Shown one piece after another: positions 13,385 through 60,617 of a DNA stretch of 60,997 nucleotides (its first letter is position 1; each line of letters opens with the position of its first letter). Made by a program: the position numbers and the translations under genes. Source of the DNA: Alphaproteobacteria bacterium. Lineage in GTDB: Bacteria; Pseudomonadota; Alphaproteobacteria; JAPYRI01. The notes beneath the pieces were generated by a model that saw only the letters and a program-made list of their open reading frames with translations, was not told the origin of the DNA and did no database searches. The stretch spans positions 1-60,997 of the forward strand of contig JAPYRI010000005.1 of assembly GCA_029941135.1 (NCBI GenBank), written 5' to 3'.

Positions 13385-13401
13385 ATTGCGTCCTTCAGTA
13401 A

Positions 13402-27496: not shown

Positions 27497-27526
27497 CCCC
27501 TTGAACACCTAGAACTGTAGGGTCCA

Positions 27527-29271: not shown

Positions 29272-29303
29272 CGGCGAGCAGTCCAGATAAAGGGAGATTG
29301 GTA

Positions 29304-30410: not shown

Positions 30411-30413
30411 CTT

Positions 30414-38324: not shown

Positions 38325-38352
38325 CTAACTTAAATTTCCCCCAGTTACCGCA

Positions 38353-40657: not shown

Positions 40658-41911
40658 ATGGAAGACGTTTACATCATTGGCGCCTCATCAACTCGTTTTC
40701 AGAAATGGCCGGAAAAATCGTACAAAGAACTGACCCGCGAAGCTTATCTGGCGGCCCTGGAAGATGCCGGGATGGCAGAGGGCGGCCCGATCCAAAGCGC
40801 ATGGTTTGGTAATTGCGGCATGTGGACGGAGAAACAGGGCTCAATACGCGGCCAGGTATGCTTCACCCCCCTCGTCCGCGAAGGTTTGTTTCCCGAACGG
40901 GTCCCAATGATCAATGTAGAAAGCGGGTGCGCAACTGCCTCAATGGCGTTGAACGGCGCCTGGAAGGACATTGTCAGCGGCCAATCCAACATGGCCATCG
41001 CCATGGGTGTTGAAAAAACCTACTTCCCTGACGCGCCGGAAAACACGGCAGCCCTCTACAATGGCGGCATAGATCAGTTCAACCCGGAAGAATGGCAAGC
41101 TTATTATGCTGCTGCCGGCGACACTGCCGGCAAGCCTTTTGAACCCGGTTCGGACCGCACCATATTCATGGACACCTACGCCATGCAGGCATGCTTCCAC
41201 ATGAAAAAATATGGCACAACCCAGCGACAAATTGCCGCGAGCGCAGCAAAAAACCATCGCAACGGGGTGGATAACCCCAAAGCGCAATACAGTTTTAATC
41301 TAACCATCGACAAAGTATTGGAAGACCGGCCGGTCACCTATCCGCTCACCCGATCCATGTGCGCGCCTACCGGCGACGGCGCTGCTGCGGCCATCGTCTG
41401 CTCGGGAAGCTATTTGAAGACATTGCCCAGCGAAGTTCAGGAGCGTGCGGTAAAGATCGCGGCAACCACATTAAGCGGCGGCAAATACAGAACGTTGGAC
41501 GAACCTGGTCTCAGCCGCACGGCTGCCGAAAAAGCATACAAAATGGCCGACTTGGCGCCTGATGATATGGATGTCGCCGAAGTGCACGACGCAACTTCGT
41601 TCTGCGAGATTTATCAGTGTGAAATGATGGGGTTCGCCGAAGAGGGCAAGGGCGGTCAGCTGGTTGAGAGCGGCGGCACTTCGAATGGCGGCAAGATACC
41701 CGTCAACATGTCGGGCGGCCTGGTCTCGAAAGGACATCCGGTGGGCGCAACCGGTCTTTCCATGATCGACGAGCTTACCACGCAATTGCGCGGCGAAGCC
41801 GGTGTACGACAAGTTGAAGGCGCACGCCGGGCTTTGGCCGAAAACGGGGGTGGGGTCATCGGATTTGACGAAGCCGCCTGCTCGGTGATTATTCTGGAAA
41901 AGACGACTTAG
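40658..41911 (+). CDS. SCP2/SCP-x-type thiolase family protein
   Basis: ESGCATAS (Cys), DGAAA, EVHDAT, KGHPVGATG and ENGGG. Confidence 0.85.
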   Translation: MEDVYIIGASSTRFQKWPEKSYKELTREAYLAALEDAGMAEGGPIQSAWFGNCGMWTEKQGSIRGQVCFTPLVREGLFPERVPMINVESGCATASMALNGAWKDIVSGQSNMAIAMGVEKTYFPDAPENTAALYNGGIDQFNPEEWQAYYAAAGDTAGKPFEPGSDRTIFMDTYAMQACFHMKKYGTTQRQIAASAAKNHRNGVDNPKAQYSFNLTIDKVLEDRPVTYPLTRSMCAPTGDGAAAAIVCSGSYLKTLPSEVQERAVKIAATTLSGGKYRTLDEPGLSRTAAEKAYKMADLAPDDMDVAEVHDATSFCEIYQCEMMGFAEEGKGGQLVESGGTSNGGKIPVNMSGGLVSKGHPVGATGLSMIDELTTQLRGEAGVRQVEGARRALAENGGGVIGFDEAACSVIILEKTT

Positions 41912-44795: not shown

Positions 44796-44798
44796 GTG

Positions 44799-46424
44799 AT
44801 GACACCGCCCAGCAAAGCAGCTTCCACTAGTTCTGCGGCTACGAAAGAACTCCGGCGCACACCTTCAGGCATTGAAATTCCGCTGATCGCGACCCCGAAC
44901 ATGCGGCAGGGCACTCTGGAAACTCCAGGAGAGGCGCCCTTTACCCGTGGTATTTTTCCCGACGGGTACCGGGGACGCATGTGGACCATGCGCCAGTATT
45001 CGGGATTTGGGACCGCCGAAGAATCGAACGAACGCTACCAATTTCTGATGGAACAAGGTCAAACCGGTTTGTCGGTCGCCCTCGACTTGCCGACACAATG
45101 CGGCTACGACCCAACCGACCCCATGGCGTCGGCAGAGGTCGGCAAAGTCGGGGTATCGCTTTCTAACCTGCGCGAGTTCGAGATACTGTTCAACAACATC
45201 GAACTGGACCGGGTATCCACGTCATTTACCATCAACGGCACGGCAGCAATCGTCTATGCCATGTACGTGGCCGCCGCCGATAAGGCGGGCATTCCGCGCG
45301 ATAAACTAACCGGCACAATCCAAAACGACATCCTCAAGGAATATGTCGCGCGGGGCACCTGGATTTTCCCGGTTCGGCCCTCGATGCGCCTCATCGCCGA
45401 CAGTGTTTTGTTCGCCAACAAAGAAACGCCGCGTTTCAATCCCATCTCCATCGCCGGCGCCCATGTGCGTGACGCGGGTTGCAATGCGGCTGAAGAAATG
45501 GGCTACACCCTGGCCAACGGCGTCGCCTATGTGGAAGAACTTTTGCGGCGCGGTGGCGACGTCAACAAGTTCGCCAAACGGCTAAGTTTTTTCTTCTATG
45601 TCCACATGGATTTCTTTGAAGAAATATCAAAGTTCCGCGCGGCGCGCCGTGTATGGGCCAACATTATGAAAGATAAGTTTGGCGCCACAGACCCCAAGGC
45701 CCTGATGTTCCGGTTTGGCGTCGTGTGTGGCGGATCGTCGCTCACCGCCGCGCAACCGCTGAACAATGTGGTCCGGGTAGGCATCGAAAATATGGCGGCG
45801 GTTCTGGGTGGCGCTCAATCCATCTTCACCTGCGCGTTTGACGAAGCTTTTCAGATCCCGACTGAACAAAGTGCCGAGCTCGCCCTGCGCACACAACAAA
45901 TCGTGGCGCATGAAAGCGGCATCGCCGACTCGGTCGACCCCTTGGGTGGCAGTTATTTTGTCGAGCACATGACCGACCAGATGGAAGCGGAAATCCTCAA
46001 AGTCATGGCGGATATCGACGAATATGGAGGCGTCGAAAAAGCGATTGAGGAAGGCTACATCCAAATGAAGATCGCCCAACGTGCCCGCGAGCGAAAAGAA
46101 AAAGTCGATAACGGGGAACGAATTGTCGTTGGCGTAAACAAGTATCAGCGGGACGAAACTGACCAGGGGTTTGGCGAAGTGTTTGAATTGGACCCTTCCG
46201 CGCGTGACCGAATACTCGATAAGTATCAAATGGTTATGGATACCCGTGACAATACGGAAGCGCAGAAACTTCTGCAACGGCTGGGCACCGCCGCCGCCGC
46301 CGAGGGGGAAAATCTTTTGCCGTATATTGTCGATTGTTGTCATGGCTATGTGACGGTTGGGGAAATGGTCGGTGAGCTAAAAAGTCACTGGGGTGAATTT
46401 CAAGAACCGGTTCGCCTGACATAG
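44799..46424 (+). CDS. Cobalamin-dependent acyl-CoA mutase, large (substrate-binding) subunit
   Basis: WTMRQYSGFG, GLSVALDLPTQ, GTIQNDILKEY and LRTQQIVAHESG. No fused B12 domain. Confidence 0.92.
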   Translation: MTPPSKAASTSSAATKELRRTPSGIEIPLIATPNMRQGTLETPGEAPFTRGIFPDGYRGRMWTMRQYSGFGTAEESNERYQFLMEQGQTGLSVALDLPTQCGYDPTDPMASAEVGKVGVSLSNLREFEILFNNIELDRVSTSFTINGTAAIVYAMYVAAADKAGIPRDKLTGTIQNDILKEYVARGTWIFPVRPSMRLIADSVLFANKETPRFNPISIAGAHVRDAGCNAAEEMGYTLANGVAYVEELLRRGGDVNKFAKRLSFFFYVHMDFFEEISKFRAARRVWANIMKDKFGATDPKALMFRFGVVCGGSSLTAAQPLNNVVRVGIENMAAVLGGAQSIFTCAFDEAFQIPTEQSAELALRTQQIVAHESGIADSVDPLGGSYFVEHMTDQMEAEILKVMADIDEYGGVEKAIEEGYIQMKIAQRARERKEKVDNGERIVVGVNKYQRDETDQGFGEVFELDPSARDRILDKYQMVMDTRDNTEAQKLLQRLGTAAAAEGENLLPYIVDCCHGYVTVGEMVGELKSHWGEFQEPVRLT

Positions 46425-46438
46425 GGGAGAAACATGAC

Positions 46439-46834
46439 GTGTCGCTAAAAGGAAAACGAATATTGATCGCAAAGCCCGGTTTGGACGGTCACGACGTGGG
46501 CGCAAAGATCATTGCCCTCGCCTTGCGGGACGCAGGTGCGGACGTCATCTACACTGGTCTCAGAAAATCACCTGAATACATTGCGCGCATAGCGGTCGAT
46601 GAAGATGTGGACGCGGTGGGACTAAGTATCCTCTCAGGTTCTCACAATGAATTGGTCGCGGAAACCATAAAACTGCTCCGCGAGATGGATGCAGATGATG
46701 TCAAAATTTTTGTCGGGGGCACCGTTTCCGGCGACGACGTGCAAAAACTTAAAGTCGCTGGTGTGGCCGGTGTATTCACCAGCGAAATGAAAATCGAAGA
46801 TACCCTAGCTGAACTTTCCGACGTTCTAGGCTGA
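46439..46834 (+). CDS. Cobalamin-binding small subunit of the acyl-CoA mutase
   Basis: AKPGLDGHDVG (DxHxxG), GLSILSG and VGG. Confidence 0.93.
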   Translation: MSLKGKRILIAKPGLDGHDVGAKIIALALRDAGADVIYTGLRKSPEYIARIAVDEDVDAVGLSILSGSHNELVAETIKLLREMDADDVKIFVGGTVSGDDVQKLKVAGVAGVFTSEMKIEDTLAELSDVLG

Positions 46835-46838
46835 TCTG

Positions 46839-47546
46839 TTGCCGGGTGGATCTTCGCGCCGCCTTGCCGTTTGGATGCTGGCGGCTCTCGCCACTGCAAT
46901 TGCCGCCTTCATTGTTTACCTCATGATCCGATTTCCTGAGGCCTTATCGGATCGGGATTCTAAAATTGGCCTCACCCATCAACTGTTGTGGCTTCTTTTA
47001 TTGGTCAGCAGTTTTGCCGTTCGCTGGCGTACTTCACCTGGCGAAACCTTGCGCAACATTGCCATTTGGGTTGCCGTTGCCGCGACCATCGGCGCTGGTT
47101 ACAGTTTCCGCCATGAATTTGAAGCGGTTGGCAACCGCATGATGTTCGAACTTGTGCCTCATCGCGGTCAAGTGGCGAATAATCGCATTACTTTTCGCGC
47201 GCGAACTAGTGGACATTTTGTTGTCGAGGCGCTTGTTGACGGCACAGCTCTCAGGTTTCTCGTTGACACCGGTGCAACCGACGTGGTTCTCAGCCCCTCA
47301 GACGCTCAACTCTTGGGCTTTGATCTGAAGTCGCTCAAGTTTACGCGCGTTTACCACACGGCAAATGGAACAGTGCGAGGCGCACCTGTGCGTCTGCGGC
47401 AGATTACGTTAGGACCGATCGCAATGCGCGACGTCCGCGCATCCGTCAACGAAGCACCCATGACTTCTTCGCTGCTGGGCATGAGTTTTCTGAGCAGACT
47501 GTCCAGTTACAAGGTCAGTAAAGATACTCTCACCCTTACCCCTTAA
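46839..47546 (+). CDS. TIGR02281-type clan AA (retropepsin-like) aspartic protease, membrane-anchored
   Basis: TM helices, GHF, FLVDTGAT, TANG and SLLGMSFL. Start position uncertain. Confidence 0.85.
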   Translation: MPGGSSRRLAVWMLAALATAIAAFIVYLMIRFPEALSDRDSKIGLTHQLLWLLLLVSSFAVRWRTSPGETLRNIAIWVAVAATIGAGYSFRHEFEAVGNRMMFELVPHRGQVANNRITFRARTSGHFVVEALVDGTALRFLVDTGATDVVLSPSDAQLLGFDLKSLKFTRVYHTANGTVRGAPVRLRQITLGPIAMRDVRASVNEAPMTSSLLGMSFLSRLSSYKVSKDTLTLTP

Positions 47547-48831: not shown

Positions 48832-48975
48832 AGTCTGCCGCGAACACTCAGGAAATTGTTGGTCAGACCGGCGCCATCCGCTACCTTGTGCCGCTGACAG
48901 GGAGGTGGCATCGGCAAGGAGGCGTTTCGTGCCTGTTTCATGCCCAATAGAGGGCGCCACCAAGGGAGGACTAGC

Positions 48976-50055
48976 ATGAAATTCGGCGCAATGGTCGCGA
49001 CCAAAATTGACAACTGGCAATTGCTCAAAGAAGCGGAGGACCTGGGCTACGACCACGCTTGGGTGCCCGATTCTCAAATGATCTGGTCTGACTGCTACGC
49101 GACGCTGGCATTGCTTGCCGAGCATACGTCACGCATCAAAATCGGCACTGGAGTTGCGATTACCGGCACGCGCGCGGCGCCCGTAACCGCGCACTCAATC
49201 GCCACCATCAATCGCTTGGCGCCGGGGAGGACGTTTCTCGGTATTGGCACCGGCCACACCGCCATGCGGGTGATGGGCATGAACCCCACAAAACCGAAGG
49301 CATTTCGCGAATATTTGCGAGTGGTACGCGCGTTGCTGGCGGGCGAAGAAGTTGAATACACCCTGGATGGGCAAACCCAGGCGATCAAGTTCCTCCATCT
49401 CGACCGCAATTTCATCGATATCGCGCATGAAATACCCATTTACGTGGCAGCAAACGGGCCAACCGCGCTCAAATCAGCCGGCGCCTACGGGGATGGTCGG
49501 ATCTCGGCCCTCAGCGAACCCGCCGATATGACCGCCGCGAGCTTGGATCAGGTAAAAGTTGGCGCTGACGAAATTGGGCGCGAATTTCCCTCTGATTTTC
49601 ATACGGCCGCCCTAACCACGGCGACTGTCCTAAAACCTGGCGAGACTCTCAAGACCGATCGGATCATTGACGAATGTGGCTCTCAAGTGATGGCCGCATT
49701 TCACTATGTGTACGAAGTATTCAAGTTGACCCAGGACGAAAGCATCGTACCGCCTTCAATCGAAAACGATTGGGAAGCTTATTGCCAACGAGTAGCCCAA
49801 ATGGAAACACCGGAAGAAAAACGCTATTTGGAACTACACGAAGGTCATTGCTCTTATCTCGTGCCGGAAGAGCGGCGGTTTGTCACGCCGGACGCGATTA
49901 GAACTTTCTGCCTGGCTGGAGAACCCGATGAAATCATTGATGAATTGCGCGAGCGGGAGAGATCCGGCCTGAAGGAAATAACACTACTGCCACCCATGGA
50001 CTACGCACGCAATGTGCTGCGCGATTTCTCGGAATTGGTCATGGCAAAGTACTAA
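48976..50055 (+). CDS. LLM class (luciferase-like) flavin-dependent oxidoreductase
   Basis: AEDLGYDHAWVPDSQ, TSRIKIGTGV, GRTFLGIGTG and PIYVAANGP. GGAGG RBS before ATG at 48976. Confidence 0.88.
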   Translation: MKFGAMVATKIDNWQLLKEAEDLGYDHAWVPDSQMIWSDCYATLALLAEHTSRIKIGTGVAITGTRAAPVTAHSIATINRLAPGRTFLGIGTGHTAMRVMGMNPTKPKAFREYLRVVRALLAGEEVEYTLDGQTQAIKFLHLDRNFIDIAHEIPIYVAANGPTALKSAGAYGDGRISALSEPADMTAASLDQVKVGADEIGREFPSDFHTAALTTATVLKPGETLKTDRIIDECGSQVMAAFHYVYEVFKLTQDESIVPPSIENDWEAYCQRVAQMETPEEKRYLELHEGHCSYLVPEERRFVTPDAIRTFCLAGEPDEIIDELRERERSGLKEITLLPPMDYARNVLRDFSELVMAKY

Positions 50056-50083: not shown

Positions 50084-50794
50084 TTGGTAAAACCCTTTTT
50101 CGACACCGACAAATATACCCGCGAGCCGGCGTCCCCCACGGTGATTGCCTTTCATAAAGCGATCAAAGATCTGGTGCGCAGCCACATGGAAGCGGGCGGT
50201 AATTGGAACGCCTTTGTCTTTGGCGAGCAGGAAAACGTGGTCAACGCCGATGCCCTTCAAGCCATCGAAGATGCGTTTCTGAAAACCGGCTATCGGTATC
50301 AAGGCTCGGCAATGATTTCGATTGAGGAGGAGCCAGAAAAATACCAAATTTTGGCGACCGCCACCAACTCGGAAATTAAATTGCCGCCCCCGGATGCGAA
50401 CGGCCGCATCTTGTGCGGCACCGGCGACAATGTGGTCCAGTTTTCTGAAAATACCGTCGGGACAGCGCTATATGTGCGCACGAGCGAGCAGGTTCTTTCG
50501 CTGCTGGAAGACGGCGTGCCCGACAACACCATTGCCATCATTGACGACAGTGGTGGCACCTTGACTGCGCCCGTACTTGAGTACTTCAAAGGAGTTGTAT
50601 GCATGGGCGGCACGGTGCGCTCTCATTTGGGTATCCTGTGCCGGGAATACGGCATTCCATGTCTCATGAACTCTGGTGTTGCCGGCATCGAGGACGGCGA
50701 CGCGGTCGAGATGGAAACCTCCGCCGCCGCCAAAACTGCCGAGGCCTATCAGAAAAATATTGAGATGACCGCAAACATCTGGAAACAATGCTGA
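50084..50794 (+). CDS. Stand-alone PEP-utilising 'mobile' (swivel phospho-His) domain protein with an unknown N-terminal domain
   Basis: GVVCMGGTVRSHLGILCREYGIPC...GIEDGDAVEM resembles the GGxxSHxAIxAREYGIPAV phospho-His signature. TTG at 50084 follows GGAG. Confidence 0.8.
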   Translation: MVKPFFDTDKYTREPASPTVIAFHKAIKDLVRSHMEAGGNWNAFVFGEQENVVNADALQAIEDAFLKTGYRYQGSAMISIEEEPEKYQILATATNSEIKLPPPDANGRILCGTGDNVVQFSENTVGTALYVRTSEQVLSLLEDGVPDNTIAIIDDSGGTLTAPVLEYFKGVVCMGGTVRSHLGILCREYGIPCLMNSGVAGIEDGDAVEMETSAAAKTAEAYQKNIEMTANIWKQC

Positions 50795-50812
50795 CGAAAG
50801 GCTAATTGCCCC

Positions 50813-52966
50813 GTGACCCTTCCCATTACTTACGCCCAATTATTGGAGACCAACAATCTGGTTCAGGCGTGCAACGACGAATCCTATTGGCTGTGCGTCA
50901 CCCGCACGGTACAAGAATCGAAGTTGTTCCCCGTACCCGCCTATATGTTGCTGTCCTACCTGATGGTCTACTACCGGTATCCTGAGCTGCTGCGCAAAAT
51001 CGAAACCAGCATGCGGGCTGAAGACATCGGCGACCGGTCACGCAACATGGGAATCAAAACCCAAGCGTCCCATATTGCCTGGTGCATGCCCGGATTTTAC
51101 CTTCTTGCGCGCGAATATCTGATCAGCATGGGCCTTATCCGTCCTCAAGACGGGGTCGAAGACTTGGTTTACCTGATGGATTTTTGGAAGCGGCATCAAC
51201 TGTCGTGGCATCGGAACGATGGTCACATCTCCAATAAGGAGTTCGGCCACCGGAGCCAAATCCTGCCTGAACGCCTGCTTCAAATTTTTGAAGCTGATTT
51301 ATTCGAATGCCGTCAGGGCGATAGCCTCCACGAAGCAGCGATGAAGTTCACGGCAACCGTCTCCCAGTATATTTTTCTCATTCACTGCGAAAGTCGAATC
51401 GGCCTCGCCAACACCGGGCCGTACAAGTTTGGTGACAACCGGGAGCTATTGGTCCGTGATTTTATGGACCTCTCCGAGGGCGACTATCCATGGATGGACG
51501 GGGTTGCAACCGACGTCCCCTACAACAATTTGACCATTCCCATGGTGGTCGAGGATTGCCATTTCTATTTGGTGGATGACTGGGCGAGCTTTGAATCCGA
51601 GCCCGAATTCAAAGCCGAGAAAGTCGTGAGCGTTGGCCTCTACACGTCGGACACGTTGAGTGAAGGCTACATGCCGGTCGGCATGGATAGCGCGGAAGAA
51701 CTCGCCAAAACTTTCGTCGATCTGAACGAGACCGTCAAAGAAGCCAGCGCCAAGCTGTGGAAGCGAATTGCCGGCTGGTCCCGGGAAGAGATGATGGACG
51801 CGGGCGCCCTCACCTATTTTTCGGTGATAAAGGACTTAGCCCACGTTGCCGGGGTTTATGAGTTCGATGATTGGATGACCATCGATGCGCGTGCCGAACG
51901 CTTCCGGCCTATATTGAATGATGAGTATGGCCGTGATTGCCTGGGTGAACTGCTCGGCTCGATGACCAACCCCAATCAACAGATAAATGAATATTCAATG
52001 ATGCAGCATTCCAATTTGCCGCAGCGTATGTTCTCCCACGTTCCCTATTCGATATTAGCGGACGGCGACTTCACCGCCACTTGCGGTAGAACGCAGGCAG
52101 GTACCAGTCACATGAGCGCCAAAACCGGTAAGTACCGAACGACACGGGGCTTGCTTGACTTGGACGACTACAATCGGCTTGCGCGCGATTTCACACCCAA
52201 GGTGTGTTCTGACAAATTTCGTTTCCTCGACGAAAATTGGGTCAAATACAATTACGACACGCCGCTTGCCGACGAACTTTACAGGGCGGAGCAAGAATCA
52301 TCTCGCAATCTGCAGGGCAAAGGCGCAGGTCTGAAGCGGGTTGACCTGCCACCTTCTCCCCCGCCAAGCGGCGATTTGCTCGCACTCCACGGATTAGCGA
52401 TCAAAAAGATGAGCACAGCTGACGTGGTTGCAGACATTCTTGGACTCGAGGTCACAGATGTATCAACCGCACTGGAAGCCGCCGTCGCTGCTCAGCAAGT
52501 TGCTATCGTAAGAGACGCCTTTATGTTGAAGCCTGCGGGGCAAGCGGCGCTCGACGCAGCCTACCCAAAAATGTTCGCGGGTTTGCGGGCAAGCGAAGAT
52601 TTCGTTGCTGCTTACGAGCGATTCGAAGTTGTAAATAACGATTTGAAGCAGTTGATTACCGACTGGCAAACCCTGGAAATTGCAGGCTCGAGGGTGCCCA
52701 ATGATCACAGCAACAAAGACTACGATGACGGCATTATCGATCGCTTGGGTACCTTGCATGATCGTGCGGAAACTGTGCTGGATGTCTTAGCGTTGGCCGA
52801 AACCCGGCTCGGCCGCTACACCGACAAATTGCTGGTGGCGCTTGAGAAATCCGAAGATGGCGAAACAGATTTCGTGAGCGGGGCCCGGGTCGAGTCCTAT
52901 CACACGGTTTGGTTTGAGTTACACGAAGATTTGCTGCGGATTTTGGGCCAAGAGCGGGACGAGTAG
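50813..52966 (+). CDS. 717-aa hypothetical fusion protein: ~510-aa unknown domain, Pro linker, ~200-aa wHTH/helical domain resembling mycobacterial Rv1126c
   Basis: Long ORF packed between operon genes. Linker PPSPPPS at about aa 513. The C-terminal AYERF..VN.DLKQLITDWQ...PNDH...YD...SYHTVWFELHEDL resembles, from memory, the protein encoded next to M. tuberculosis ppdK. Confidence 0.75.
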   Translation: MTLPITYAQLLETNNLVQACNDESYWLCVTRTVQESKLFPVPAYMLLSYLMVYYRYPELLRKIETSMRAEDIGDRSRNMGIKTQASHIAWCMPGFYLLAREYLISMGLIRPQDGVEDLVYLMDFWKRHQLSWHRNDGHISNKEFGHRSQILPERLLQIFEADLFECRQGDSLHEAAMKFTATVSQYIFLIHCESRIGLANTGPYKFGDNRELLVRDFMDLSEGDYPWMDGVATDVPYNNLTIPMVVEDCHFYLVDDWASFESEPEFKAEKVVSVGLYTSDTLSEGYMPVGMDSAEELAKTFVDLNETVKEASAKLWKRIAGWSREEMMDAGALTYFSVIKDLAHVAGVYEFDDWMTIDARAERFRPILNDEYGRDCLGELLGSMTNPNQQINEYSMMQHSNLPQRMFSHVPYSILADGDFTATCGRTQAGTSHMSAKTGKYRTTRGLLDLDDYNRLARDFTPKVCSDKFRFLDENWVKYNYDTPLADELYRAEQESSRNLQGKGAGLKRVDLPPSPPPSGDLLALHGLAIKKMSTADVVADILGLEVTDVSTALEAAVAAQQVAIVRDAFMLKPAGQAALDAAYPKMFAGLRASEDFVAAYERFEVVNNDLKQLITDWQTLEIAGSRVPNDHSNKDYDDGIIDRLGTLHDRAETVLDVLALAETRLGRYTDKLLVALEKSEDGETDFVSGARVESYHTVWFELHEDLLRILGQERDE

Positions 52967-52972
52967 TTCGGA

Positions 52973-54700
52973 ATGGAGTCGGCTGAGAACAAGAGGTCCG
53001 AGAACAAATGGGTAATGCGGCTCGACGGTGCGACCTTGCCCGACCGCGATCTGATCGGCGGTAAGGCGTGGAGCATAGCACGCCTGCGCAACCTGGGCTT
53101 GCCCACTTCACCCGCCGTTGCGGCTACCACCGAGGCATGCCGTGCCTTTATGAAAACTGGTGATCTCCCCGCTGGCCTGATGGACGAGCTTCGTGTCGGC
53201 ATTGAAGAGATTGAACACGAGACCGGACGAAAGTTTGGTGGCACTGAACATCCCTTGCTGGTCGCGGTCAGATCGGGTGCGCCGATCAGCATGCCAGGCA
53301 TGATGGACACAGTGCTCAATTTAGGCATGACAGATGCGGTCGAACTGGCACTGGCACAAGAAAGCGGCGATCCGGAATTTGCCGCCGACACCCGGCGTCG
53401 ATTTCTCGAACTTTACGACACCATTGTGCTCAAAAATTCCGGTGCCGAGGTGCCGGAAACTGCCGACGCGCAGTTGGCAGGTGCCGTACGCGCCGTGTTT
53501 GAGTCGTGGAATTCCCGGCGCGCTAAACGTTATCGCAAACACAACGGCATCCCCGACGACCTTGGTACAGCGGTTACAATTCAGGCCATGGTGTTCGGAA
53601 ACCTAGACGATCAGAGCGGCACTGGTGTTTTATTCAGCCGCAATCCCTTGACCGGCGACCCCGCACCCTACGGCGAATATCTCGCTTGTGCGCAAGGAGA
53701 AGACGTGGTGTCAGGCAAAGTGACGCCGCAGCCGCTTTCCGCCCTAGAGGCCGCCCAACCGGGCGCCCACAAAGAATTGTTGAAGGCGGCCGCCTTATTG
53801 GAGTGTGAAAGCGGCGACGTTCAGGATATCGAGTTCACCATCCAACAGGGCAAATTGTATTTGCTCCAATCGCGGTCGGCCAAAAGATCGCCCTCTGCGG
53901 CCGTTCGCTTTGCCATCGATTTCGTGCGCGAAGGAAAGATCGACAAAAGTGAAGCCTTGCGCCGGGTGACATCCGAACAAATACGCACTTTGCTTCGCCC
54001 GCGTCTTGAAGACGGAGCTGACAACCGCCCTAAGCCTGTCGCGGTAGGTGAAGCTGCTTGTCAGGGTGTTGGTGTTGGTGTTGTCGTGACCGCCGCGGAC
54101 AGCGCCGAGGCCGAAGCCGCAAAGGGCCACAAAGTTATACTTGCCCGCCCCACCACCAGCCCCGAAGACGTGCATGGCATGCTGGTTGCCGAAGCCGTCA
54201 TCACCGAACAAGGGGGGCCAACTTCCCATGCAGCGGTGGTCAGTCGGGCGTTGGGTTTACCCTGTGTGGTCGGATGCGGCGATGGTGCGTTGACCAACCT
54301 CGGTGGCCAGACTGTCACCGTGGATGGCGAAAAAGGGCACGTTTATGACGCGGTATTACCGGTAAAAGTGCCGGACGAAAGGGAAGAAGGCGGCCTCAGC
54401 GACCTCATTAATTGGGCTTCTGAGATTTCCCCCGTGGTGGTGTACAGCGCTTCTGACGCCCTACCTGAAAGTCTAGGTGATGCCGACATTGTTGATTTGG
54501 ATCACTTGACCGATGGTGAAGACTCCGATCATATCGCTCGCTTACTTAATGGTGCGATTGCTGCCCGGGGCAGCATCCTGAATTCGGACGCAGGCGTGTC
54601 CGCCGCGATAAGATCCGGTGTCAAAACCATCATTGTCCGCCACACCCTACCGGCCCTCCTGGCCGCGTGCGCGAATACGGATACCATTACAGAAACTTGA
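52973..54700 (+). CDS. Truncated pyruvate phosphate dikinase-like protein (ATP-grasp and phospho-His domains, no PEP/pyruvate barrel)
   Basis: GGKA, VRSGAPISMPGMMDTVLNLG, QAMVFGN, AQGEDVVSG, QDIEFT..GKLYLLQSR and GGPTSHAAVV. Only 575 aa; none of the C-terminal PPDK motifs are present. Confidence 0.88.
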   Translation: MESAENKRSENKWVMRLDGATLPDRDLIGGKAWSIARLRNLGLPTSPAVAATTEACRAFMKTGDLPAGLMDELRVGIEEIEHETGRKFGGTEHPLLVAVRSGAPISMPGMMDTVLNLGMTDAVELALAQESGDPEFAADTRRRFLELYDTIVLKNSGAEVPETADAQLAGAVRAVFESWNSRRAKRYRKHNGIPDDLGTAVTIQAMVFGNLDDQSGTGVLFSRNPLTGDPAPYGEYLACAQGEDVVSGKVTPQPLSALEAAQPGAHKELLKAAALLECESGDVQDIEFTIQQGKLYLLQSRSAKRSPSAAVRFAIDFVREGKIDKSEALRRVTSEQIRTLLRPRLEDGADNRPKPVAVGEAACQGVGVGVVVTAADSAEAEAAKGHKVILARPTTSPEDVHGMLVAEAVITEQGGPTSHAAVVSRALGLPCVVGCGDGALTNLGGQTVTVDGEKGHVYDAVLPVKVPDEREEGGLSDLINWASEISPVVVYSASDALPESLGDADIVDLDHLTDGEDSDHIARLLNGAIAARGSILNSDAGVSAAIRSGVKTIIVRHTLPALLAACANTDTITET

Positions 54701-54710
54701 GGATTGTGGC

Positions 54711-55193
54711 TTGGATCAAACAAAGAACAATATTCGTGCGCTAGTAAGATTGTTCGAGCAATCGGACTGGGATGAACTACGCGTTGAAACCAAAGACTTA
54801 AAGCTCGTAATTTCGAAAAATGCGAACGCACCTGGCCTGACGGTTTTAGAGAATGCACCACGCACACGATTGCCCAGTACCGCGGACGCCGAAATCACGG
54901 ATGCGACTGAACCCGCCGCCAAAAGCGAACCGGCTGAAATTCCTGAAGGATTGGTGGCGGTGCGGGCACCCAATTTGGGCACCTTTTGGCGCGCCCCCAA
55001 ACCTGGCGCCGCGCCCTATATCGAAGTTGGGCAAAAAGTAAATGCCGACACGATGGTGTGCTTGATCGAAGTGATGAAGTTGTTCACCCCAATAAATGCG
55101 GGAATTGCTGGCACCGTCGTCGAACTTGTCGCTGAGAACAGCGCCATGGTCGAATACGGCGATACCCTTGTCCTCATTGATCCCAGCACTTGA
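54711..55193 (+). CDS. Biotin carboxyl carrier protein
   Basis: APNLGTFWRAPKPG, IEVMKL (biotin Lys) and VEYG. TTG at 54711 follows GAGG. Confidence 0.92.
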   Translation: MDQTKNNIRALVRLFEQSDWDELRVETKDLKLVISKNANAPGLTVLENAPRTRLPSTADAEITDATEPAAKSEPAEIPEGLVAVRAPNLGTFWRAPKPGAAPYIEVGQKVNADTMVCLIEVMKLFTPINAGIAGTVVELVAENSAMVEYGDTLVLIDPST

Positions 55194-55214
55194 TCTGGAC
55201 GAGCACCTAATCTC

Positions 55215-56585
55215 ATGAACCTCTCGCGTGTATTTGTCGCCAATCGGGGAGAAATCGCGGTGCGAGTGCTGCGCGCTTGTCGCAAGCTTGAGCTCTCTTC
55301 AGTAATTGGCGTGTCGGAGGCCGACCAGGAAAGCACCGGGGCAATGATGGCTGATCGTGCAATTGTTATAGGCCCAGCTCCCTCAAAGGACAGCTACCTC
55401 AAGCCAGACCTCATCGTTTCGGCAGCGGTAAACAGCGGTTGCGATGCGCTTCATCCTGGCTATGGTTTCTTGTCTGAACGCGGTGAACTGGCCGAAATGT
55501 GTGCCGAAAACGGGATCGCTTTCGTTGGCCCCACAGCCGATACCATTCGTAAAGTGGGCGATAAAATTTCTGCCAGGGAACTAGCCCGCGCGGCCGGAGT
55601 TCCCCTGGTTCCCGGATCCGGCGAAGTGTCCACTGTGGAGCAGGCCAAATCAGCGGCAAGCGACGTGGGTTATCCTATCGTACTGAAAGCGACCGCCGGC
55701 GGCGGCGGGCGTGGTATGGCAGTCGCCCGGGCGGACGAAGACATTGCGAGAACTTTCGACGCCGCGTCCTTAGAAGCCGAAGAAGCGTTCGGCGACGGCA
55801 CTCTTTACGTGGAACGCTTTGTTGAGAACGCCCGCCATGTGGAAGTTCAGATATTGGGTGACGGCAAAGGCAACGTGCTTCATTTCGGCGACCGGGATTG
55901 TTCAGCCCAGCGGCGTTATCAAAAAGTCGTGGAAGAAGCCCCCGCAACTGCTGTGCCGGATGATATTCGCACGAACATGCGTGAAGCTGCCGTGCGCTTG
56001 GCCAAAAGTATCAATTACCGCAATGCGGGCACCGTCGAATTTCTCTACGATCAAAACCACAATGCGTTCTACTTCATCGAAGTGAATGCGCGCATCCAAG
56101 TCGAACATCCGGTCACCGAAGAGATTACCGGCGTTGATCTGGTGGTCGCGCAACTCAAAATCGCGGCCGGCGAACCCCTCGGGTTAACTCAAGACATGAT
56201 CGCACTCAGCGGACACGCCATCGAATGCCGGATCAACGCCGAAATGCCGCTGCGGGACTTCGCGCCATCGCCTGGACGAATTACCGCCTGGTTGCCACCC
56301 GAGGGCGACGGCGTACGTGTCGATAGTCATTGCGAGCAGGGCTACACGGTTCCGCCCTATTATGACAGCATGATTGGGAAGCTGATCGTCCACGGCGCGA
56401 CCCGCACGGAAGCCATATCGCGCATGCGTGGCGCGCTCGCCGATTTCCGCATCGATGGCATACATACCAATACCCACTTGCAAGCCTTTCTGGTGGGCCA
56501 TCGGGATTTCAAAGACAATAAAATTAACACCAAATGGCTGGAGACAACTCTCCTGCCCGCGTATTCAAGCGTAATGGGAGATTAG
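55215..56585 (+). CDS. Biotin carboxylase
   Basis: ANRGEIA, HPGYGFLSE, GGGGRGM, RDCSAQRRYQK, EVNARIQVEHPVTE and YYDSMIGKL. Confidence 0.95.
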   Translation: MNLSRVFVANRGEIAVRVLRACRKLELSSVIGVSEADQESTGAMMADRAIVIGPAPSKDSYLKPDLIVSAAVNSGCDALHPGYGFLSERGELAEMCAENGIAFVGPTADTIRKVGDKISARELARAAGVPLVPGSGEVSTVEQAKSAASDVGYPIVLKATAGGGGRGMAVARADEDIARTFDAASLEAEEAFGDGTLYVERFVENARHVEVQILGDGKGNVLHFGDRDCSAQRRYQKVVEEAPATAVPDDIRTNMREAAVRLAKSINYRNAGTVEFLYDQNHNAFYFIEVNARIQVEHPVTEEITGVDLVVAQLKIAAGEPLGLTQDMIALSGHAIECRINAEMPLRDFAPSPGRITAWLPPEGDGVRVDSHCEQGYTVPPYYDSMIGKLIVHGATRTEAISRMRGALADFRIDGIHTNTHLQAFLVGHRDFKDNKINTKWLETTLLPAYSSVMGD

Positions 56586-56591
56586 ATCGGA

Positions 56592-58061
56592 ATGGCGGTA
56601 ATTGAGTTTCTTGATGAGACCATGCGAGACGGGCAGCAAAGCCTGTGGGGCATGCGCATGCAGGCGGGCATGGCGCTGCCCATTACCCCCACCATCGACA
56701 AGGTTGGTTTTCGGGTCGTTGACCTCACCGGCAGCTCCATGTTCGAAGTGCTGATCCGCCATTGCCAGGAAAACCCCTGGGAGGGCCTCGATCTATTAGT
56801 CAGTTCCATGCCCAACAGCAAAATCCGTGCGGGTATGCGCAGTAACGCGGCAGTGACCTTTGGGGTGACCCCCGACGCTTTAATGGATGTGTGGATGCAT
56901 CAGCTCTGCCGTCACGGCATCAAGAGCATGTGGATTTATGACGTCCTGTTCAACATCGACAAGACCTACCGATTGGCAAAGATCGCCAAGGAATATGATG
57001 TCGAAGTGGCGGGCGCGATCATGTTCACCATGAGCCCCGTGCACACCGACGCACACTACGCAGACAAGGCGCAGAAGCTCGCTGCATGCGCGGATATCGA
57101 CACCCTGTTACTCTACGACACGGCTGGCGTTTTGGGCCCGGAGCGTTTGCGCACCCTGGTGCCGGCTCTCATTGAGCAGGCCAACGGTAAGCCGATCGAA
57201 TTTCACTCGAACAATATACTGGGCGCGTCAGCCATTGCTTATCTGGAGGCGGTCAAGTTGGGCGTCACCATTTTGCATACTGCAAGTCGTCCCATGGCCA
57301 ACGGCCCTTCGGTGCCATCGACCGAGATTATGGTGCGGAACATCGAATTGCTAGGACACAGCCATGGTCTAGATACGTCGTTGTTGCCGCCCATTGCCGA
57401 ACATTTCGAAAAAGTTGCCTCAGCCGCCGGTTTCCCAACAGGCGTGCCCAATGAGTATGATTTGTTTTCAATCGAGCATCAGATCCCCGGCGGCATGGTC
57501 GGCACCTTTAAGGCCCAACTCGATCAGCACAAAATGCCGGAAAAACTGGACGAAGTGCTGGCAGAATCTGCCATCGTCCGGCGCGAACTGGGTTACCCTG
57601 GCATGGCGACCCCGTTTTCGCAATTGGTGGGCACGTTGGCGGTGCTGAACGTGGTGACCGGCAAGCGCTATACAGTCATCCCGGACGAGGTGATCCAATA
57701 CGCCGCCGGATACTACGGTGACCCGGTTGCACCGATCGATCCGAACGTATTGGACATCATTATGGGCTCGGCTCGCGCCAAGGAAATTCTGACCTCTCCG
57801 CCAGCCCAGCCCAGTCTTGAGGACTTAAGAAAAGAGTTCGGCACCGGCGATGACGACGACGAGCTCATCTTGCGGGCTCTGGTTCCCGAAGCCGATCTGG
57901 ATAAAATGCGCGCAGCCGGGCCAGTCAAACAAACTTATCCTATGCTGTCATCGCCAGAGCTTGAATACGCGCGCAAACTGATGGCCAGCACCAGCGCCAA
58001 TTTTCTTGAAATCGAAACCACCGACCTGTCGCTGTCGTTGCGCCGAGGCCCAAACTCTTAG
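56592..58061 (+). CDS. Carboxyltransferase of the pyruvate carboxylase B / oxaloacetate decarboxylase alpha / XccA type, with atypical metal site
   Basis: DETMRDGQQSL, HQIPGGM and LGYPGMATPFSQ. The KD motif reads YD and the HxH motif reads HSN. Confidence 0.85.
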   Translation: MAVIEFLDETMRDGQQSLWGMRMQAGMALPITPTIDKVGFRVVDLTGSSMFEVLIRHCQENPWEGLDLLVSSMPNSKIRAGMRSNAAVTFGVTPDALMDVWMHQLCRHGIKSMWIYDVLFNIDKTYRLAKIAKEYDVEVAGAIMFTMSPVHTDAHYADKAQKLAACADIDTLLLYDTAGVLGPERLRTLVPALIEQANGKPIEFHSNNILGASAIAYLEAVKLGVTILHTASRPMANGPSVPSTEIMVRNIELLGHSHGLDTSLLPPIAEHFEKVASAAGFPTGVPNEYDLFSIEHQIPGGMVGTFKAQLDQHKMPEKLDEVLAESAIVRRELGYPGMATPFSQLVGTLAVLNVVTGKRYTVIPDEVIQYAAGYYGDPVAPIDPNVLDIIMGSARAKEILTSPPAQPSLEDLRKEFGTGDDDDELILRALVPEADLDKMRAAGPVKQTYPMLSSPELEYARKLMASTSANFLEIETTDLSLSLRRGPNS

Positions 58062-58128: not shown

Positions 58129-59349
58129 ATGGCGAATCCGAGCAAGACTCTGTTTTCCGGGTTGCGAATCCTCGACTTGACCCGGGCCGTCGCCGGACCC
58201 ACATGCACGCGCATGTTCTCTGAGCTGGGGGCGGACGTGATTAAAGTGGAGGCTTTTCCGGAAGGTGATCTGACCCGTCAGGTATCCAAAATCAGAAACG
58301 AGCGAAGTCTGTACTTCGTTCAGCAAAATCTTGGCAAAAAAAGCCTATGCGTTGATCTGCGCAATCCGAAAGGTCTGCAATTGGTCAAGGATTTAGTGCC
58401 ATTGGTCGATGTCGTGGTGCAAAACTTCAAGCCCGGGGTGATGGCGTCAATGGGGATGGCCTACGACGATCTGAAGGAGCTAAAGCAAGACATTATCTTG
58501 TGCTCGATATCGTCGCTCGGTCAGACCGGCTCACTTGCTGAAAAGCCCGGCTACGACATGATCGCCCAATCTTACGCGGGCGTAACATCGATGGTCGGTG
58601 ACCCGGACGATGCACCTTGCTTTCCCCAATTGGCGATCGGCGACGTCAGCACCGGTGTCATGGGAGCTTTCTCAGTGCTCGCCGCCCTCTATCACCGGGA
58701 CCGTACCGGCGAAGGTCAACACTTGGACGTGAGCATTCTCGACACTTACTACCATAGCCACGAAGCAAGCGTTCATCAGTACAGCGGCAGCAACGGTAAG
58801 ATCGAACCCAACAGAACCGGTCGCCATATGAATTATTTGGCCCCAGCCGGCGTTTTTCGCGCCAATGGAGGCTATATCACGATCATGTCTTTCCTCCATC
58901 ACTGGAAGGATTTATGCGCGGCAATGGACCGCCCCGAATTGGCAGAAGACGAAAGATTAGGAAACGATGAAGGCCGCCTCGAGAATTTGGATGAAGTCAT
59001 TGAGTTGATCGAAAGCTGGCTCCAGAATTTTCCGGACCGGGATACCGCAATGGACAAACTTGACGAATTTGGTGTGCCGGCGGGCCCTGTCTTAACGATC
59101 GCCGAAACAGTCGCCCATCCTCACCTTCGAGAGCGAGGGACTGTGCGCACAATTGATGATCGGATTGCGGGAAAATTCGAGATCCCCGGCTTGCCGCCGA
59201 AGTTCTCAAAGTTCCCCGACTTGCCCGAGTTCGATGCGCCTACTTTGGGTGAGCACAACGAAGAGATTATAACCAATATCCTGGGTCGTTCAGACGACGA
59301 GCTTGCTGAGTTAAGGAATGCCGGGATCCTAAAAGAGAAAAATATTTGA
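58129..59349 (+). CDS. Class III (CaiB/BaiF) CoA-transferase, copy 1
   Basis: ILDLTRAVAGP, GADVIKVE, NLGKKS, NFKPG, GYD, IGD (catalytic Asp) and PTLGEHN. Confidence 0.93.
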   Translation: MANPSKTLFSGLRILDLTRAVAGPTCTRMFSELGADVIKVEAFPEGDLTRQVSKIRNERSLYFVQQNLGKKSLCVDLRNPKGLQLVKDLVPLVDVVVQNFKPGVMASMGMAYDDLKELKQDIILCSISSLGQTGSLAEKPGYDMIAQSYAGVTSMVGDPDDAPCFPQLAIGDVSTGVMGAFSVLAALYHRDRTGEGQHLDVSILDTYYHSHEASVHQYSGSNGKIEPNRTGRHMNYLAPAGVFRANGGYITIMSFLHHWKDLCAAMDRPELAEDERLGNDEGRLENLDEVIELIESWLQNFPDRDTAMDKLDEFGVPAGPVLTIAETVAHPHLRERGTVRTIDDRIAGKFEIPGLPPKFSKFPDLPEFDAPTLGEHNEEIITNILGRSDDELAELRNAGILKEKNI

Positions 59350-59396: not shown

Positions 59397-60617
59397 ATGA
59401 CCGGCGCGACTGAACCACTTTTCGAGGGCCTCAAAATACTCGACTTTACACGCGCCCTCGCAGGCCCAACCTGTACCCGCATGTTTGCTGAAATGGGCGC
59501 CGATGTGATCAAGGTCGAGTCGGCGCCAAACGGCGATCTAACCCGTCAAATGTCTAAGATACGGAATGATCGCAGCCTTTATTACATTCAGCAAAATCTT
59601 GGCAAACAAAGTCTTTGTGTAAATTTACGTGACCCTCGCGGCATCGCTCTCATGAAAGAACTCGTTCCCCATATGGATGTGGTGGTTGAAAACTTTAAGC
59701 CGGGCCGGATGGCATCCATGGGACTGGATTATGAAGCGCTCAAAGAACTGAAAGAGGACATCATTCTGTGTTCAATTTCGGCCATGGGGCAAACTGGCCC
59801 GCTGGCAACAAAACCAGGTTACGATTACATCGCCCAAGCCTATACCGGCGTCACTTCCATGATCGGCGATCCTAATGACGCACCCTCTATCCCACTTTTG
59901 GGCATCGGCGATGTCGCCACGGGCGTGCATGGGGCGTTTGCTGTTTTGGCGGCAATTTATCACCGGGAAAGAACCGGTCGGGGGCAGCATTTGGATGTTG
60001 CCCTGGCCGATGTTTATTACCATTGTCACGAAGTGAACGTGCACCAGTACACGGGCAGCAATGGTGAGATTAAGCCGACCCGCGGCGGTCGCCACATGAG
60101 CTACGTGTGCCCGGCTGGGGTGTTTCGCGCCAATGGCGGCGACATCATGATCATGGCGTTTCTCCATCACTTTAAGGATTTATGCGCGGCCATGGACCGC
60201 CCGGAATTGGTCACTAAAGAAGGGTGGACAACCGACCAGGAACGCTTGGCCAGGTTGGATGAAGTTGTGGCACTGGTCGAAACTTGGCTTCAGACTTTTC
60301 CTAGCCACTGGGACGCGATTGCAAAGATGGAAGAGCACGGCGTTCCCGTGGCGCCCATTCTGACCGTAGAAGACACGATCACTCACCCACACTTGCTACA
60401 TCGGGGTACGATCCGCACAATTAACGACCGGCTCGCGGGCGAATTCGGCATTCCCGGGATGCCGATTAAGTTTTCCGAATTTCCTGAGGATTTGCCCTTG
60501 GAGGCTGACACCCTGGGCCAGCACAATGCGCATATAATCACCGAGGTTTTGAATCACAGCGAAGAAGAATTGGCCCAATTACGCGCCGATGGAATATTGA
60601 ACGAAGGGGAGTTCTAA
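59397..60617 (+). CDS. Class III (CaiB/BaiF) CoA-transferase, copy 2
   Basis: Same motifs as copy 1, same 406-aa length and colinear with it. Confidence 0.93.
   Translation: MTGATEPLFEGLKILDFTRALAGPTCTRMFAEMGADVIKVESAPNGDLTRQMSKIRNDRSLYYIQQNLGKQSLCVNLRDPRGIALMKELVPHMDVVVENFKPGRMASMGLDYEALKELKEDIILCSISAMGQTGPLATKPGYDYIAQAYTGVTSMIGDPNDAPSIPLLGIGDVATGVHGAFAVLAAIYHRERTGRGQHLDVALADVYYHCHEVNVHQYTGSNGEIKPTRGGRHMSYVCPAGVFRANGGDIMIMAFLHHFKDLCAAMDRPELVTKEGWTTDQERLARLDEVVALVETWLQTFPSHWDAIAKMEEHGVPVAPILTVEDTITHPHLLHRGTIRTINDRLAGEFGIPGMPIKFSEFPEDLPLEADTLGQHNAHIITEVLNHSEEELAQLRADGILNEGEF

Follow-up and report, generated by a model that had tools for sequence, protein, structure and literature searches.

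The 60,997-nucleotide contig JAPYRI010000005.1 of an alphaproteobacterium (GTDB lineage JAPYRI01, assembly GCA_029941135.1), referred to over its full length as the window, carries three closely spaced forward-strand genes that appear to encode an ATP-driven kinase of a kind not described before, and to represent a third kinase type for pathways of the Hpe kind, in which ketones are phosphorylated and then carboxylated. The first gene encodes HisS (50084..50794, 236 aa), the second a protein of 717 residues (50813..52966) and the third P0003 (52973..54700, 575 aa), a truncated relative of pyruvate, phosphate dikinase (PPDK). They are followed on the same strand by genes for biotin carboxyl carrier protein (BCCP; 54711..55193), an ATP-grasp biotin carboxylase (BC; 55215..56585) and a carboxyltransferase (CT; 56592..58061). 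An earlier reading of this DNA, made from the letters alone and called here the sequence-only reading, had singled out the first three genes as a PPDK-derived phosphotransfer module. The coordinates, lengths and intergenic gaps of 18 and 6 bp that it gave are all present in the list of open reading frames and their translations, but the conserved unit does not stop at the third gene and runs on at least through BCCP, BC and CT.

HisS has a helical N-terminal part and a C-terminal mobile domain of the PEP-utilizers type, also known as a His-swivel domain. Its open reading frame begins at 50012, and the TTG codon at 50084 is preceded by GGAG 5 nt upstream; ten aligned orthologues begin at or near this TTG, nine of them at query residue 1 and the one in locus L007 at residue 7. 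PEP-utilizers is the only Pfam family matched (E 3.5e-07, residues 172-233 of the 260-aa reading frame), and the domain carries the motif GGTVRSH...REYGIPC, in which His181 is the candidate phospho-histidine. Both the family match and the motif uphold the proposal of a stand-alone His-swivel protein at this position. The longer motif DDSGGTLTAP...GGT.RSHL.IL.REYGIPC, including the histidine, is invariant in all 11 sequences compared.

P0003 is made up of an ATP-grasp domain (PPDK_N, PF01326, E 4.8e-43), a His-swivel domain (PEP-utilizers, PF00391, E 1.8e-24) bearing GGPTSH with His419, and a tail of about 75 residues. It aligns to residues 3-545 of the solved 874-aa PPDK chain 9pzl_A (E 1.3e-114), the segment around its His motif, GGPTSHAAVVSR, being set against GGMTSHAAVVAR of that chain, and the alignment ends at residue 545 of 874, where the phosphoenolpyruvate (PEP)/pyruvate barrel would begin. 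At E<=0.01, Pfam finds no PEP-utilizers_C domain (PF02896) in P0001, P0002 or P0003. The observation of an ATP-grasp and His-domain protein that stops at 575 aa without the barrel is therefore confirmed, as is the expectation that a Pfam scan of the trio would return PPDK_N and PEP-utilizers and no PEP-utilizers_C. A canonical PPDK frame of 894 aa is located elsewhere in the same genome. P0003 also passes the NCBIfam model NF004531, ‘pyruvate, phosphate dikinase’, over its full length (693 bits, cut-off 456), a name that is probably wrong or misleading for barrel-less proteins of about 530-580 aa because the PEP/pyruvate domain is absent; the model may also cover the mycobacterial ‘PpdK’. As a separate observation on this gene, contigs from two independent sequencing runs (X6 and X9) diverge from the window at the same two places, within 53813-53844, and their loose ends finish in the same letters, which points to variation between strains in this short stretch.

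The protein encoded between HisS and P0003 matches no Pfam family, no NCBIfam family and, at E<=1, no PDB sequence, and a search of the ESM Atlas returned no usable match. Yet 1066 proteins match it at E<=0.001, and orthologues of all three genes, 48-65% identical, occur in 11 other genomes; these are real genes and not chance reading frames. Among the best 120 of the 1066 homologues, 26 are 717-748 aa long and 92 are 512-536 aa long, the latter matching residues 1-512 only. In ten loci tblastn splits the 717-aa query into residues 1-512 and 523-717, encoded about 1.5 kb apart. By these comparisons the protein joins two proteins that most relatives encode separately, one of 512 aa that we call U-N (residues 1-512; 50813..52348), the proposed substrate-binding and phosphoryl-acceptor site, and one of 200 aa that we call U-C (residues 523-717; 52379..52966). 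Contigs of three other runs, drawn from three studies (X2 record 2, X5 record 11 and X6 record 17), span the fusion point at about 52349-52382; X2 shares its study with the possible source sample. The sequence-only reading had treated the 717-aa product as a single protein without a family; the lack of a family match stands, but the natural unit is two proteins, fused here.

Structural comparison sets the two parts apart. The AlphaFold2 model of the whole protein has a pLDDT of 87, and that of U-N alone a pLDDT of 86 and a pTM of 0.88. Foldseek searches of the PDB with the whole 717-aa model and with the whole U-N model gave no match at E<=0.001, the only rows being weak Bet v 1/START-like ones (E 0.2-2), and a wide VIA search with the whole U-N model reached a best Z of only 3.4 among 48161 chains. 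Thirty-three stand-alone homologues, mostly 512-536 aa long, share 62-68% identity with U-N, and many charged residues are invariant among them. In the model, U-C folds into a winged helix (residues 519-588) and a helical bundle (589-713), and these are the only regions at which the full-length model finds matches in VIA. The winged helix is MarR-like (Z 11-12, rmsd 1.1-1.7 over about 70 residues), but these are common-fold matches, and therefore no function follows from them. U-C is a constant companion of U-N and perhaps serves as a docking adaptor for P0003.

That HisS and the 717-aa protein form a functional pair is suggested by two lines of evidence. The first is gene fusion. A U-N profile run against 1.84 billion representative sequences gave 528 matches, and four of the ten distant relatives scanned (P0177, P0182, P0221 and P0246) carry an N-terminal PEP-utilizers domain. 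P0246 (777 aa) consists of a His domain, U-N and U-C in that order on one chain, with identities to the corresponding parts in the window of 35% (HisS His domain), 28% over 398 residues (U-N) and 29% over 164 residues (U-C). That parts which are separate or half-fused in the window make up a single chain elsewhere speaks for joint action of the His domain, U-N and U-C. U-N is thus associated with a PEP-utilizers His domain both through an adjacent gene (11 of 11 loci) and, in these four relatives, through fusion. Directly 3' of P0246-type fused kinases in four metagenome loci lies a PPDK-like gene with an intact His motif, and P450 genes adjoin such kinases in three loci (L027, L028 and L038); a Pfam scan of the neighbours in L028 and L031 gave nothing informative. 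All 14 orthologues retain the GG.TSH motif of the P0003 type, as do all three distant partners for which the alignment covers it. Since the HisS motif is likewise invariant, the design with two histidine carriers is conserved across a divergence reaching down to 28% identity.

The second line is a predicted complex. Three runs with HisS and the 717-aa protein gave ipSAE values of 0.86, 0.86 and 0.85, and the best control gave 0.00. Of 80 solved complexes 58 attain a value of 0.86, as do 2 of 110 mismatched pairs; since the alignments were our own, these counts apply only roughly. Between runs at least 78% of contacts are shared, partner pLDDT is at least 83, and the confident interface brings residues 179-181 of HisS (R-S-H) together with many invariant residues of U-N. 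The model supports binding of HisS to the 717-aa protein, with His181 included in the docked surface, as a check proposed with the sequence-only reading had envisaged. This interface and the fused chains lend weight to the suggestion that the acceptor site is provided by the 717-aa protein.

The wider operon is conserved in order as well as in content. A scan of species-representative genomes recovered 12 loci in metagenome-assembled genomes of Alpha-, Beta- and Gammaproteobacteria, including Sterolibacterium and Roseiarcus, and by tblastn these have the fixed order HisS, U-N, a gene of about 1.5 kb, U-C, PPDK-like, BCCP, BC, CT. HisS lies directly 5' of U-N in all 11 loci that hold the start of U-N, the PPDK-like gene directly 3' of U-C in all 11 that reach that far, and BCCP, BC and CT follow in all nine that extend further. 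The gene between U-N and U-C encodes an AMP-forming acyl-CoA synthetase (ACS; Pfam AMP-binding in L004 and L008), which falls in one blastp cluster in at least 7 of 10 loci, and of the nine loci long enough to judge by, at least seven have a thiolase gene directly after CT (by Pfam in L002 and L005); both counts are lower bounds because the greedy picker of reading frames took long antisense frames in some high-GC loci. A SurE-family gene occurs near the cluster in L004, L006, L007 and L009 (by blastp clustering, checked with Pfam in L006 and L007), GntR regulators and SDR genes recur around the related loci, and regulators of the IclR, GntR or LuxR type accompany the clusters as separate genes. 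The window departs from this pattern: it has no ACS, U-N and U-C are fused, and two CoA-transferase genes follow CT. A functional swap of CoA-transferases for ACS is plausible.

Searching plasmids with tblastn added three replicons with the complete cluster, all from cultured organisms: pRB98 of Rhodococcus oxybenzonivorans S2-17, pA of Rhodococcus pyridinivorans P23 and pSA1 of Novosphingobium resinovorum SA1. The Rhodococcus order is HisS, U-N, AMP-binding protein, U-C, ‘pyruvate, phosphate dikinase’, BCCP, BC and CT, followed on both plasmids by genes for an OB-fold protein, a thiolase, a tyrosine-protein-phosphatase-like protein and an SRPBCC protein. On pSA1 all parts are present in a rearranged order, U-N standing apart from HisS-U-C-PPDK, and a SurE gene (tblastn) lies inside the cluster. 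The linkage of the three genes, on which the sequence-only reading had staked its case, therefore holds in other genomes at each junction and on both Rhodococcus plasmids, with pSA1 as a variant in which U-N has moved. Just 5' of the main cluster, both Rhodococcus plasmids carry two extra modules combining a His domain with a U-like protein (L042 7902-12272 on pRB98; L045 6308-9879 on pA). The first consists of a small His-domain protein and a U-like protein of 398 aa, the second of a single fused protein of 542 to 577 aa. Because neither has an ATP-grasp or PPDK-like gene of its own, one PPDK-like protein may serve several acceptor modules. U-N was found neither in 40 sampled relatives of the window genome, with U-N as query, nor in 400 genomes sampled from the phylum, with the distant P0246 as query, a distribution that points to a patchily distributed accessory trait. 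The family of the 717-aa protein occurs in marine, vent, groundwater and soil bacteria.

The genes that follow the trio encode a three-part carboxylase. BCCP matches Pfam Biotin_lipoyl and TIGR00531 (119 bits) and probably starts at the TTG at 54711, which follows GAGGA; the mechanical reading frame opens at 54618 and overlaps the P0003 gene, and tblastn alignments of orthologues begin at residue 35-37 of that frame in most loci (11-42 overall). BC has the domains CPSase_L_D2, Biotin_carb_N and Biotin_carb_C and scores 640 bits against NF006367. CT is of the PycB/OadA-alpha/5S type (Pfam HMGL-like and PYC_OADA) without a BCCP domain, and its best PDB matches are PycB (5ks8_C, 3.9e-60), OadA (2nx9) and 5S (1rqb). 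In a maximum-likelihood tree of 20 rows, which has one long-branched outgroup (OadA) and contains no proven PycB, 5S or 2-oxoglutarate carboxylase, 14 CTs of the present system form a clade (support 100/99) that is sister, among the rows sampled, to three CTs from MarK- or AcvAB-type clusters (98/94). These three come from plasmid examples typed by their clusters (L044 and L046 as MarK, L047 as AcvAB) and stand in for the characterised HpeA, AcvE and XccA; the CTs of the two groups are 37-40% identical. Outside the sister clades fall two clusters without a kinase and the OadA.

The sister relationship points to a known strategy. In the Hpe pathway of Rhodococcus rhodochrous GD02, the two-subunit kinase HpeHI is reported to phosphorylate acetovanillone and 4-hydroxyacetophenone, the biotin enzyme HpeCBA to carboxylate the phosphorylated ketones only, HpeD to strip off the phosphate, and HpeE with HpeF to form and cleave a CoA ester; the phosphate sits on the distant phenolic oxygen and survives carboxylation (PMC9618137). 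In kinases of the AcvAB/HpeHI type the ATP-grasp and His-bearing subunits are described as separate proteins, both needed for phosphorylation (PMC9618137). The AcvABCDEF system of Sphingobium SYK-6 is homologous to Hpe, and its CT is described as PycB-like (bioRxiv 10.1101/2022.04.28.489975). In Novosphingobium aromaticivorans the first step is reported to be performed by MarK, a UPF0261 kinase unrelated to AcvAB, and both kinase types, known to be interchangeable in such clusters, are co-located with carboxylase genes (PMC12624787). Like these operons (HpeHI-CBA-D-E-F of GD02, AcvABCDEF of SYK-6 and XccABC of Aromatoleum), the window combines a kinase of the PEP-utilizer type with a carboxylase of separate BCCP, BC and PycB/5S-type CT; the logic of the published operons extends further, to a phosphatase, CoA activation and C-C cleavage (PMC9618137; bioRxiv 10.1101/2022.04.28.489975). 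The phosphatase is of the HAD type in Hpe/Acv and of the SurE or tyrosine-phosphatase-like (PTP-like) type in seven clusters related to ours, with none seen in the window. Relatives of the present system have a CoA ligase of the FadD/MenE type, the Acv/MarK clusters one that is acetoacetyl-CoA-synthetase-like.

It is in the kinase that the systems part. The ATP-grasp protein of the window is a close PPDK relative with a His domain of its own, and a small protein encoded separately is the second His carrier. Between U-N and the AcvA-like alpha subunit hhalign detects no homology (probability 0.3%), and only the His domains match, that of HisS aligning with the C-terminal His domain of the AcvA-like protein at an hhalign probability of 90%. 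Nor was a UPF0261/Tm-1-like protein, as expected for a kinase of the MarK type, found among the window proteins scanned. Because the likeness to the AcvA-like subunit is confined to the His domain, the present system would work like Hpe/Acv yet lies outside that family by its kinase. With PPDK (EC 2.7.9.1), P0003 shares the ATP-grasp domain and a His-swivel domain with GG.TSHAAVV.R; it lacks the TIM barrel and has beside it the second His carrier and U-N, which belongs to no known family. Phenylphosphate synthase, CreHI, HpeHI and AcvAB are likewise split enzymes of the dikinase type in which a swivel histidine moves phosphate from an ATP-grasp protein to an acceptor other than pyruvate. In that type, however, the His domain forms the C-terminus of the large substrate subunit and the ATP-grasp subunit has none (as in L047), an architecture not matched here: the trio has two His domains, one within P0003 and one in HisS, separate from the acceptor, and in fused relatives of the window type the His domain precedes the acceptor domain. 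Rifampicin phosphotransferase joins an ATP-grasp and a His-swivel domain to a foreign substrate-binding domain. The His region of P0003 matches this enzyme weakly (NF041857, 1.1e-14; 5hv1 and 5fbs, about 2e-08), but rifampicin phosphotransferase is a single chain with one His domain, and the NCBIfam and PDB searches revealed no similarity of U-N to it.

Taken together, sequence comparison, modelling and analogy lead us to think that the trio is probably the kinase half of a catabolic operon that activates a chemically inert compound of the ketone type by phosphorylation followed by biotin-dependent carboxylation, in the manner of Hpe/Acv. According to this proposal, P0003 would use ATP at its ATP-grasp domain and load its own swivel histidine, His419, from which the phosphoryl group would pass to His181 of HisS, itself stably bound to the 717-aa protein. 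HisS would then swing His181 into a conserved pocket of U-N rich in arginine, lysine and histidine; U-N would take the place of the missing PEP/pyruvate barrel and hold the substrate, with phosphorylation most likely on a hydroxyl group. BCCP, BC and the 5S-type CT would add CO2 beside the carbonyl to give a beta-keto acid, the two CoA-transferases (ACS in relatives) would form the CoA ester, a thiolase would cleave it, and the SurE or tyrosine-phosphatase-like enzyme of relatives would take off the phosphate. The idea, already voiced in the sequence-only reading, that phosphorylation precedes carboxylation fits the presence of biotin carboxylase genes directly after the trio. The nature of the substrate can be narrowed a little. 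Relatives carry a ligase of the FadD/MenE type, the clusters contain thiolases of the SCP2 type together with OB-fold partners and are bordered by P450 and LLM/SDR genes, and an HpaB-like hydroxylase gene adjoins the R. pyridinivorans cluster; together with the cofactor F420 biosynthesis protein CofD of the window genome, these hints suggest a bulky or hydrophobic hydroxy-ketone, perhaps made by hydroxylation and alcohol oxidation.

Several observations weigh against this proposal. The steps of the mechanism, the substrate and the site of phosphorylation are all inferred, and the complex model cannot show phosphotransfer. We know of no precedent for histidine-to-histidine transfer between two swivel domains. 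A Pfam scan of 48 window proteins brought up no phosphatase gene, and the sole SurE of the genome lies on another contig. No biotin carboxylase was seen in any of 13 loci of P0246-type fused kinases, and therefore the kinase module is not tied to carboxylation as such. Conversely, plasmid L051 of R. opacus G13 (10108-15032) has BCCP-BC-CT with a CT that falls in the present clade on a long branch and with ACS and P450 genes nearby, yet genes for HisS, U-N and a PPDK-like protein are all lacking within 12 kb. Finally, the CT tree is thinly sampled, and ‘sister’ holds for the sampled rows only.

The relay from ATP to His419 to His181 to the substrate is the simplest reading of two conserved histidines, but two further arrangements of the same parts deserve attention. 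In one, there is no relay: HisS would be the sole carrier for U-N and would be loaded in trans by the ATP-grasp domain of P0003, as the beta subunit loads the alpha-subunit histidine in the two-subunit kinases, and the His domain of P0003 would handle the gamma-phosphate, serve other acceptor modules or act in regulation. We regard this as possible, if less probable than not. It draws on the AcvAB/HpeHI kinases, whose separate ATP-grasp and His subunits are both required (PMC9618137; example cluster L047), and on the two additional Rhodococcus modules without a PPDK-like gene. It has to contend with the strict retention of the P0003 motif in orthologues and distant partners alike, which indicates that the domain is under selection for phosphoryl carriage; conservation of the motif cannot, though, tell direct loading from relay.

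The other arrangement takes the sugar phosphotransferase system as its model. There, the swivel histidine of Enzyme I passes phosphate to a histidine of HPr, which serves substrate-specific components; to our knowledge this is the only precedent for a relay that starts from a swivel domain of the PEP-utilizer type. By analogy, P0003 could be the ‘enzyme I’ of an ATP-driven catabolic phosphorelay, with His419 feeding the histidines of interchangeable modules made of a His domain and U-N. The window has one such acceptor module and the Rhodococcus plasmids three. We put this possibility forward tentatively, as less probable than not. In a bolder form, the two histidines would capture the beta- and gamma-phosphate of one ATP. 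The likeness has its bounds, since in the sugar system the donor is PEP and not ATP, the second histidine sits on the unrelated HPr fold and the whole is linked to transport, unlike the system in the window.

A chemically different route would convert an unactivated ketone to its enol phosphate, as PPDK does with pyruvate, from which CT would take its enolate donor with release of inorganic phosphate, so that neither a hydroxyl group nor a phosphatase would be needed. P0003 is far closer to true PPDK than to the kinases of the phenylphosphate-synthase type, as the alignment to 9pzl_A attests, and CT belongs to the pyruvate-carboxylase type, which acts on an enolate. The route also remains live because the window has no linked phosphatase among the proteins scanned. 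We nonetheless consider it unlikely. Phosphatases are linked to seven clusters (SurE in L004, L006, L007, L009 and pSA1; PTP-like on the two Rhodococcus plasmids), and a linked phosphatase would be superfluous if the phosphate left during carboxylation; these genes favour a hydroxyl phosphate that survives carboxylation over an enol phosphate, as the phenolic phosphate of the sister system is reported to do (PMC9618137). U-N, moreover, shows no likeness to the PEP/pyruvate barrel by Pfam, Foldseek or VIA.

It is also conceivable, but in our judgement quite improbable, that the trio is a regulatory module in which phospho-histidine proteins and U-C respond to a metabolite or to the energy state and govern the carboxylase or its transcription, leaving the pathway substrate unphosphorylated by the module. 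His domains of the PEP-utilizer type do act in the regulatory phosphorelays of the sugar phosphotransferase system, and U-C contains a MarR-like winged helix with a VIA Z of about 11-12 over some 70 residues; at that score, however, the winged helix is a common fold. The window, 26 of the best 120 homologues listed and P0246 all join U-C to the enzyme-like U-N in one protein, the identity of U-N to its 33 homologues with so many invariant charged residues is typical of a catalytic domain, and the clusters are already accompanied by regulators of their own. Least probable by far is ordinary metabolism of PEP, pyruvate and oxaloacetate by a split PPDK and a split pyruvate carboxylase, as the NF004531 name of P0003 and the PycB and OadA relatives of CT might suggest, given that Pfam finds no PEP/pyruvate-binding domain anywhere in the cluster, that the genome has its canonical 894-aa PPDK frame elsewhere, that embedded ACS or CoA-transferases and a thiolase are unneeded for oxaloacetate, and that the system, with U-N not found in the 40 relatives and 400 phylum genomes sampled, resides, unlike central metabolism, on catabolic megaplasmids.

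Carboxylation is one of the few oxygen-independent ways of entry into inert ketones, and only a handful of enzyme systems for it are known. We found no literature on the present cluster, including by six Rhodococcus protein and locus identifiers, in a search that did not cover supplementary lists of hpe/acv-like clusters. If the kinase-carboxylase proposal is right, the strategy of phosphorylating and then carboxylating would have a third, structurally unrelated kinase type, and may be general and modular, reaching beyond lignin-derived acetophenones, and a conserved family that has neither a Pfam model nor a structural relative would for the first time be placed in a functional context. Should the analogy with the sugar phosphotransferase system hold, this would be the first histidine-to-histidine transfer between two PEP-utilizer mobile domains, and U-N would be a small-molecule kinase domain of new fold with more than 1000 metagenomic proteins. 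The strict conservation of two phospho-histidine carriers poses a testable mechanistic question, and the cultured Rhodococcus and Novosphingobium carriers open the cluster to genetics and enzymology.

The following genes around the operon lie on the forward strand as well. Two family-III CoA-transferase genes lie in tandem behind CT (58129-59349 and 59397-60617; Pfam CoA_transf_3, E 4.5e-109 and 1.7e-101) and probably stand in for the acyl-CoA synthetase that relatives carry within the cluster. Upstream of HisS are genes for a cytochrome P450 (47590-48831; Pfam p450) and, directly 5' of HisS, for an LLM-class oxidoreductase (48940-50055; Pfam Bac_luciferase). The latter is probably F420-dependent, its matches to F420 LLM models of NCBIfam all lying below cut-off; the genome encodes CofD (G000:C29:26743-27648; 299.5 bits, above cut-off) and may thus be able to make the coenzyme, which would fit the position of this gene. 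Tentatively, the P450 and the LLM oxidoreductase may be the makers of a hydroxy/keto substrate. Further upstream, a thiolase of the SCP2/lipid-transfer type (40658..41911; Pfam Thiolase_C_1 and Thiolase_N), 48% identical to the thiolase of L007, 40% to that of the Novosphingobium cluster and 33% to that of the Rhodococcus cluster, is a possible downstream step of the pathway.

Two carboxylase loci without a kinase, belonging to the same carboxyltransferase superfamily, came to light on plasmids. In Cnuibacter (L049 4926-11446) the genes after CT-BCCP-BC encode BioY, 3-oxoacid CoA-transferase A/B and a thiolase, and in Burkholderia sp. THE68 (L048 5980-9392) CT-BCCP-BC lies near genes for acetoacetate decarboxylase and carbonic anhydrase; these enzymes may carboxylate small ketones with biotin and without a preceding phosphorylation step.

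Other parts of the window hold further genes of interest. A large subunit (542 aa) like that of methylmalonyl-CoA mutase and a small B12-binding subunit are encoded at 44796-47546 together with, behind them, a protein of 235 aa that bears an aspartyl protease domain of the retroviral type (PF13975, E 4.9e-26), an odd member of a block devoted to the catabolism of CoA esters. A set for quinohemoprotein amine dehydrogenase occupies 25895-32845, with the alpha subunit, a radical-SAM maturase, a 402-aa protein without a Pfam match, an ABC exporter and a subtilase. On the reverse strand, 35452-39237 encodes a molybdenum hydroxylase with MoCo, 2Fe-2S and FAD subunits, of the xanthine dehydrogenase/CO dehydrogenase type, adjoined by genes for an MFS transporter and an FAD monooxygenase-like protein. 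Among the records listed as matching 50084-58061 there is none of RNA. A marine proteobacterium as the source is suggested by genes of Gram-negative type in the window (DUF481, ExbB and DUF3450) and by the records that match this stretch, which are labelled as hydrothermal vent and marine metagenomes.

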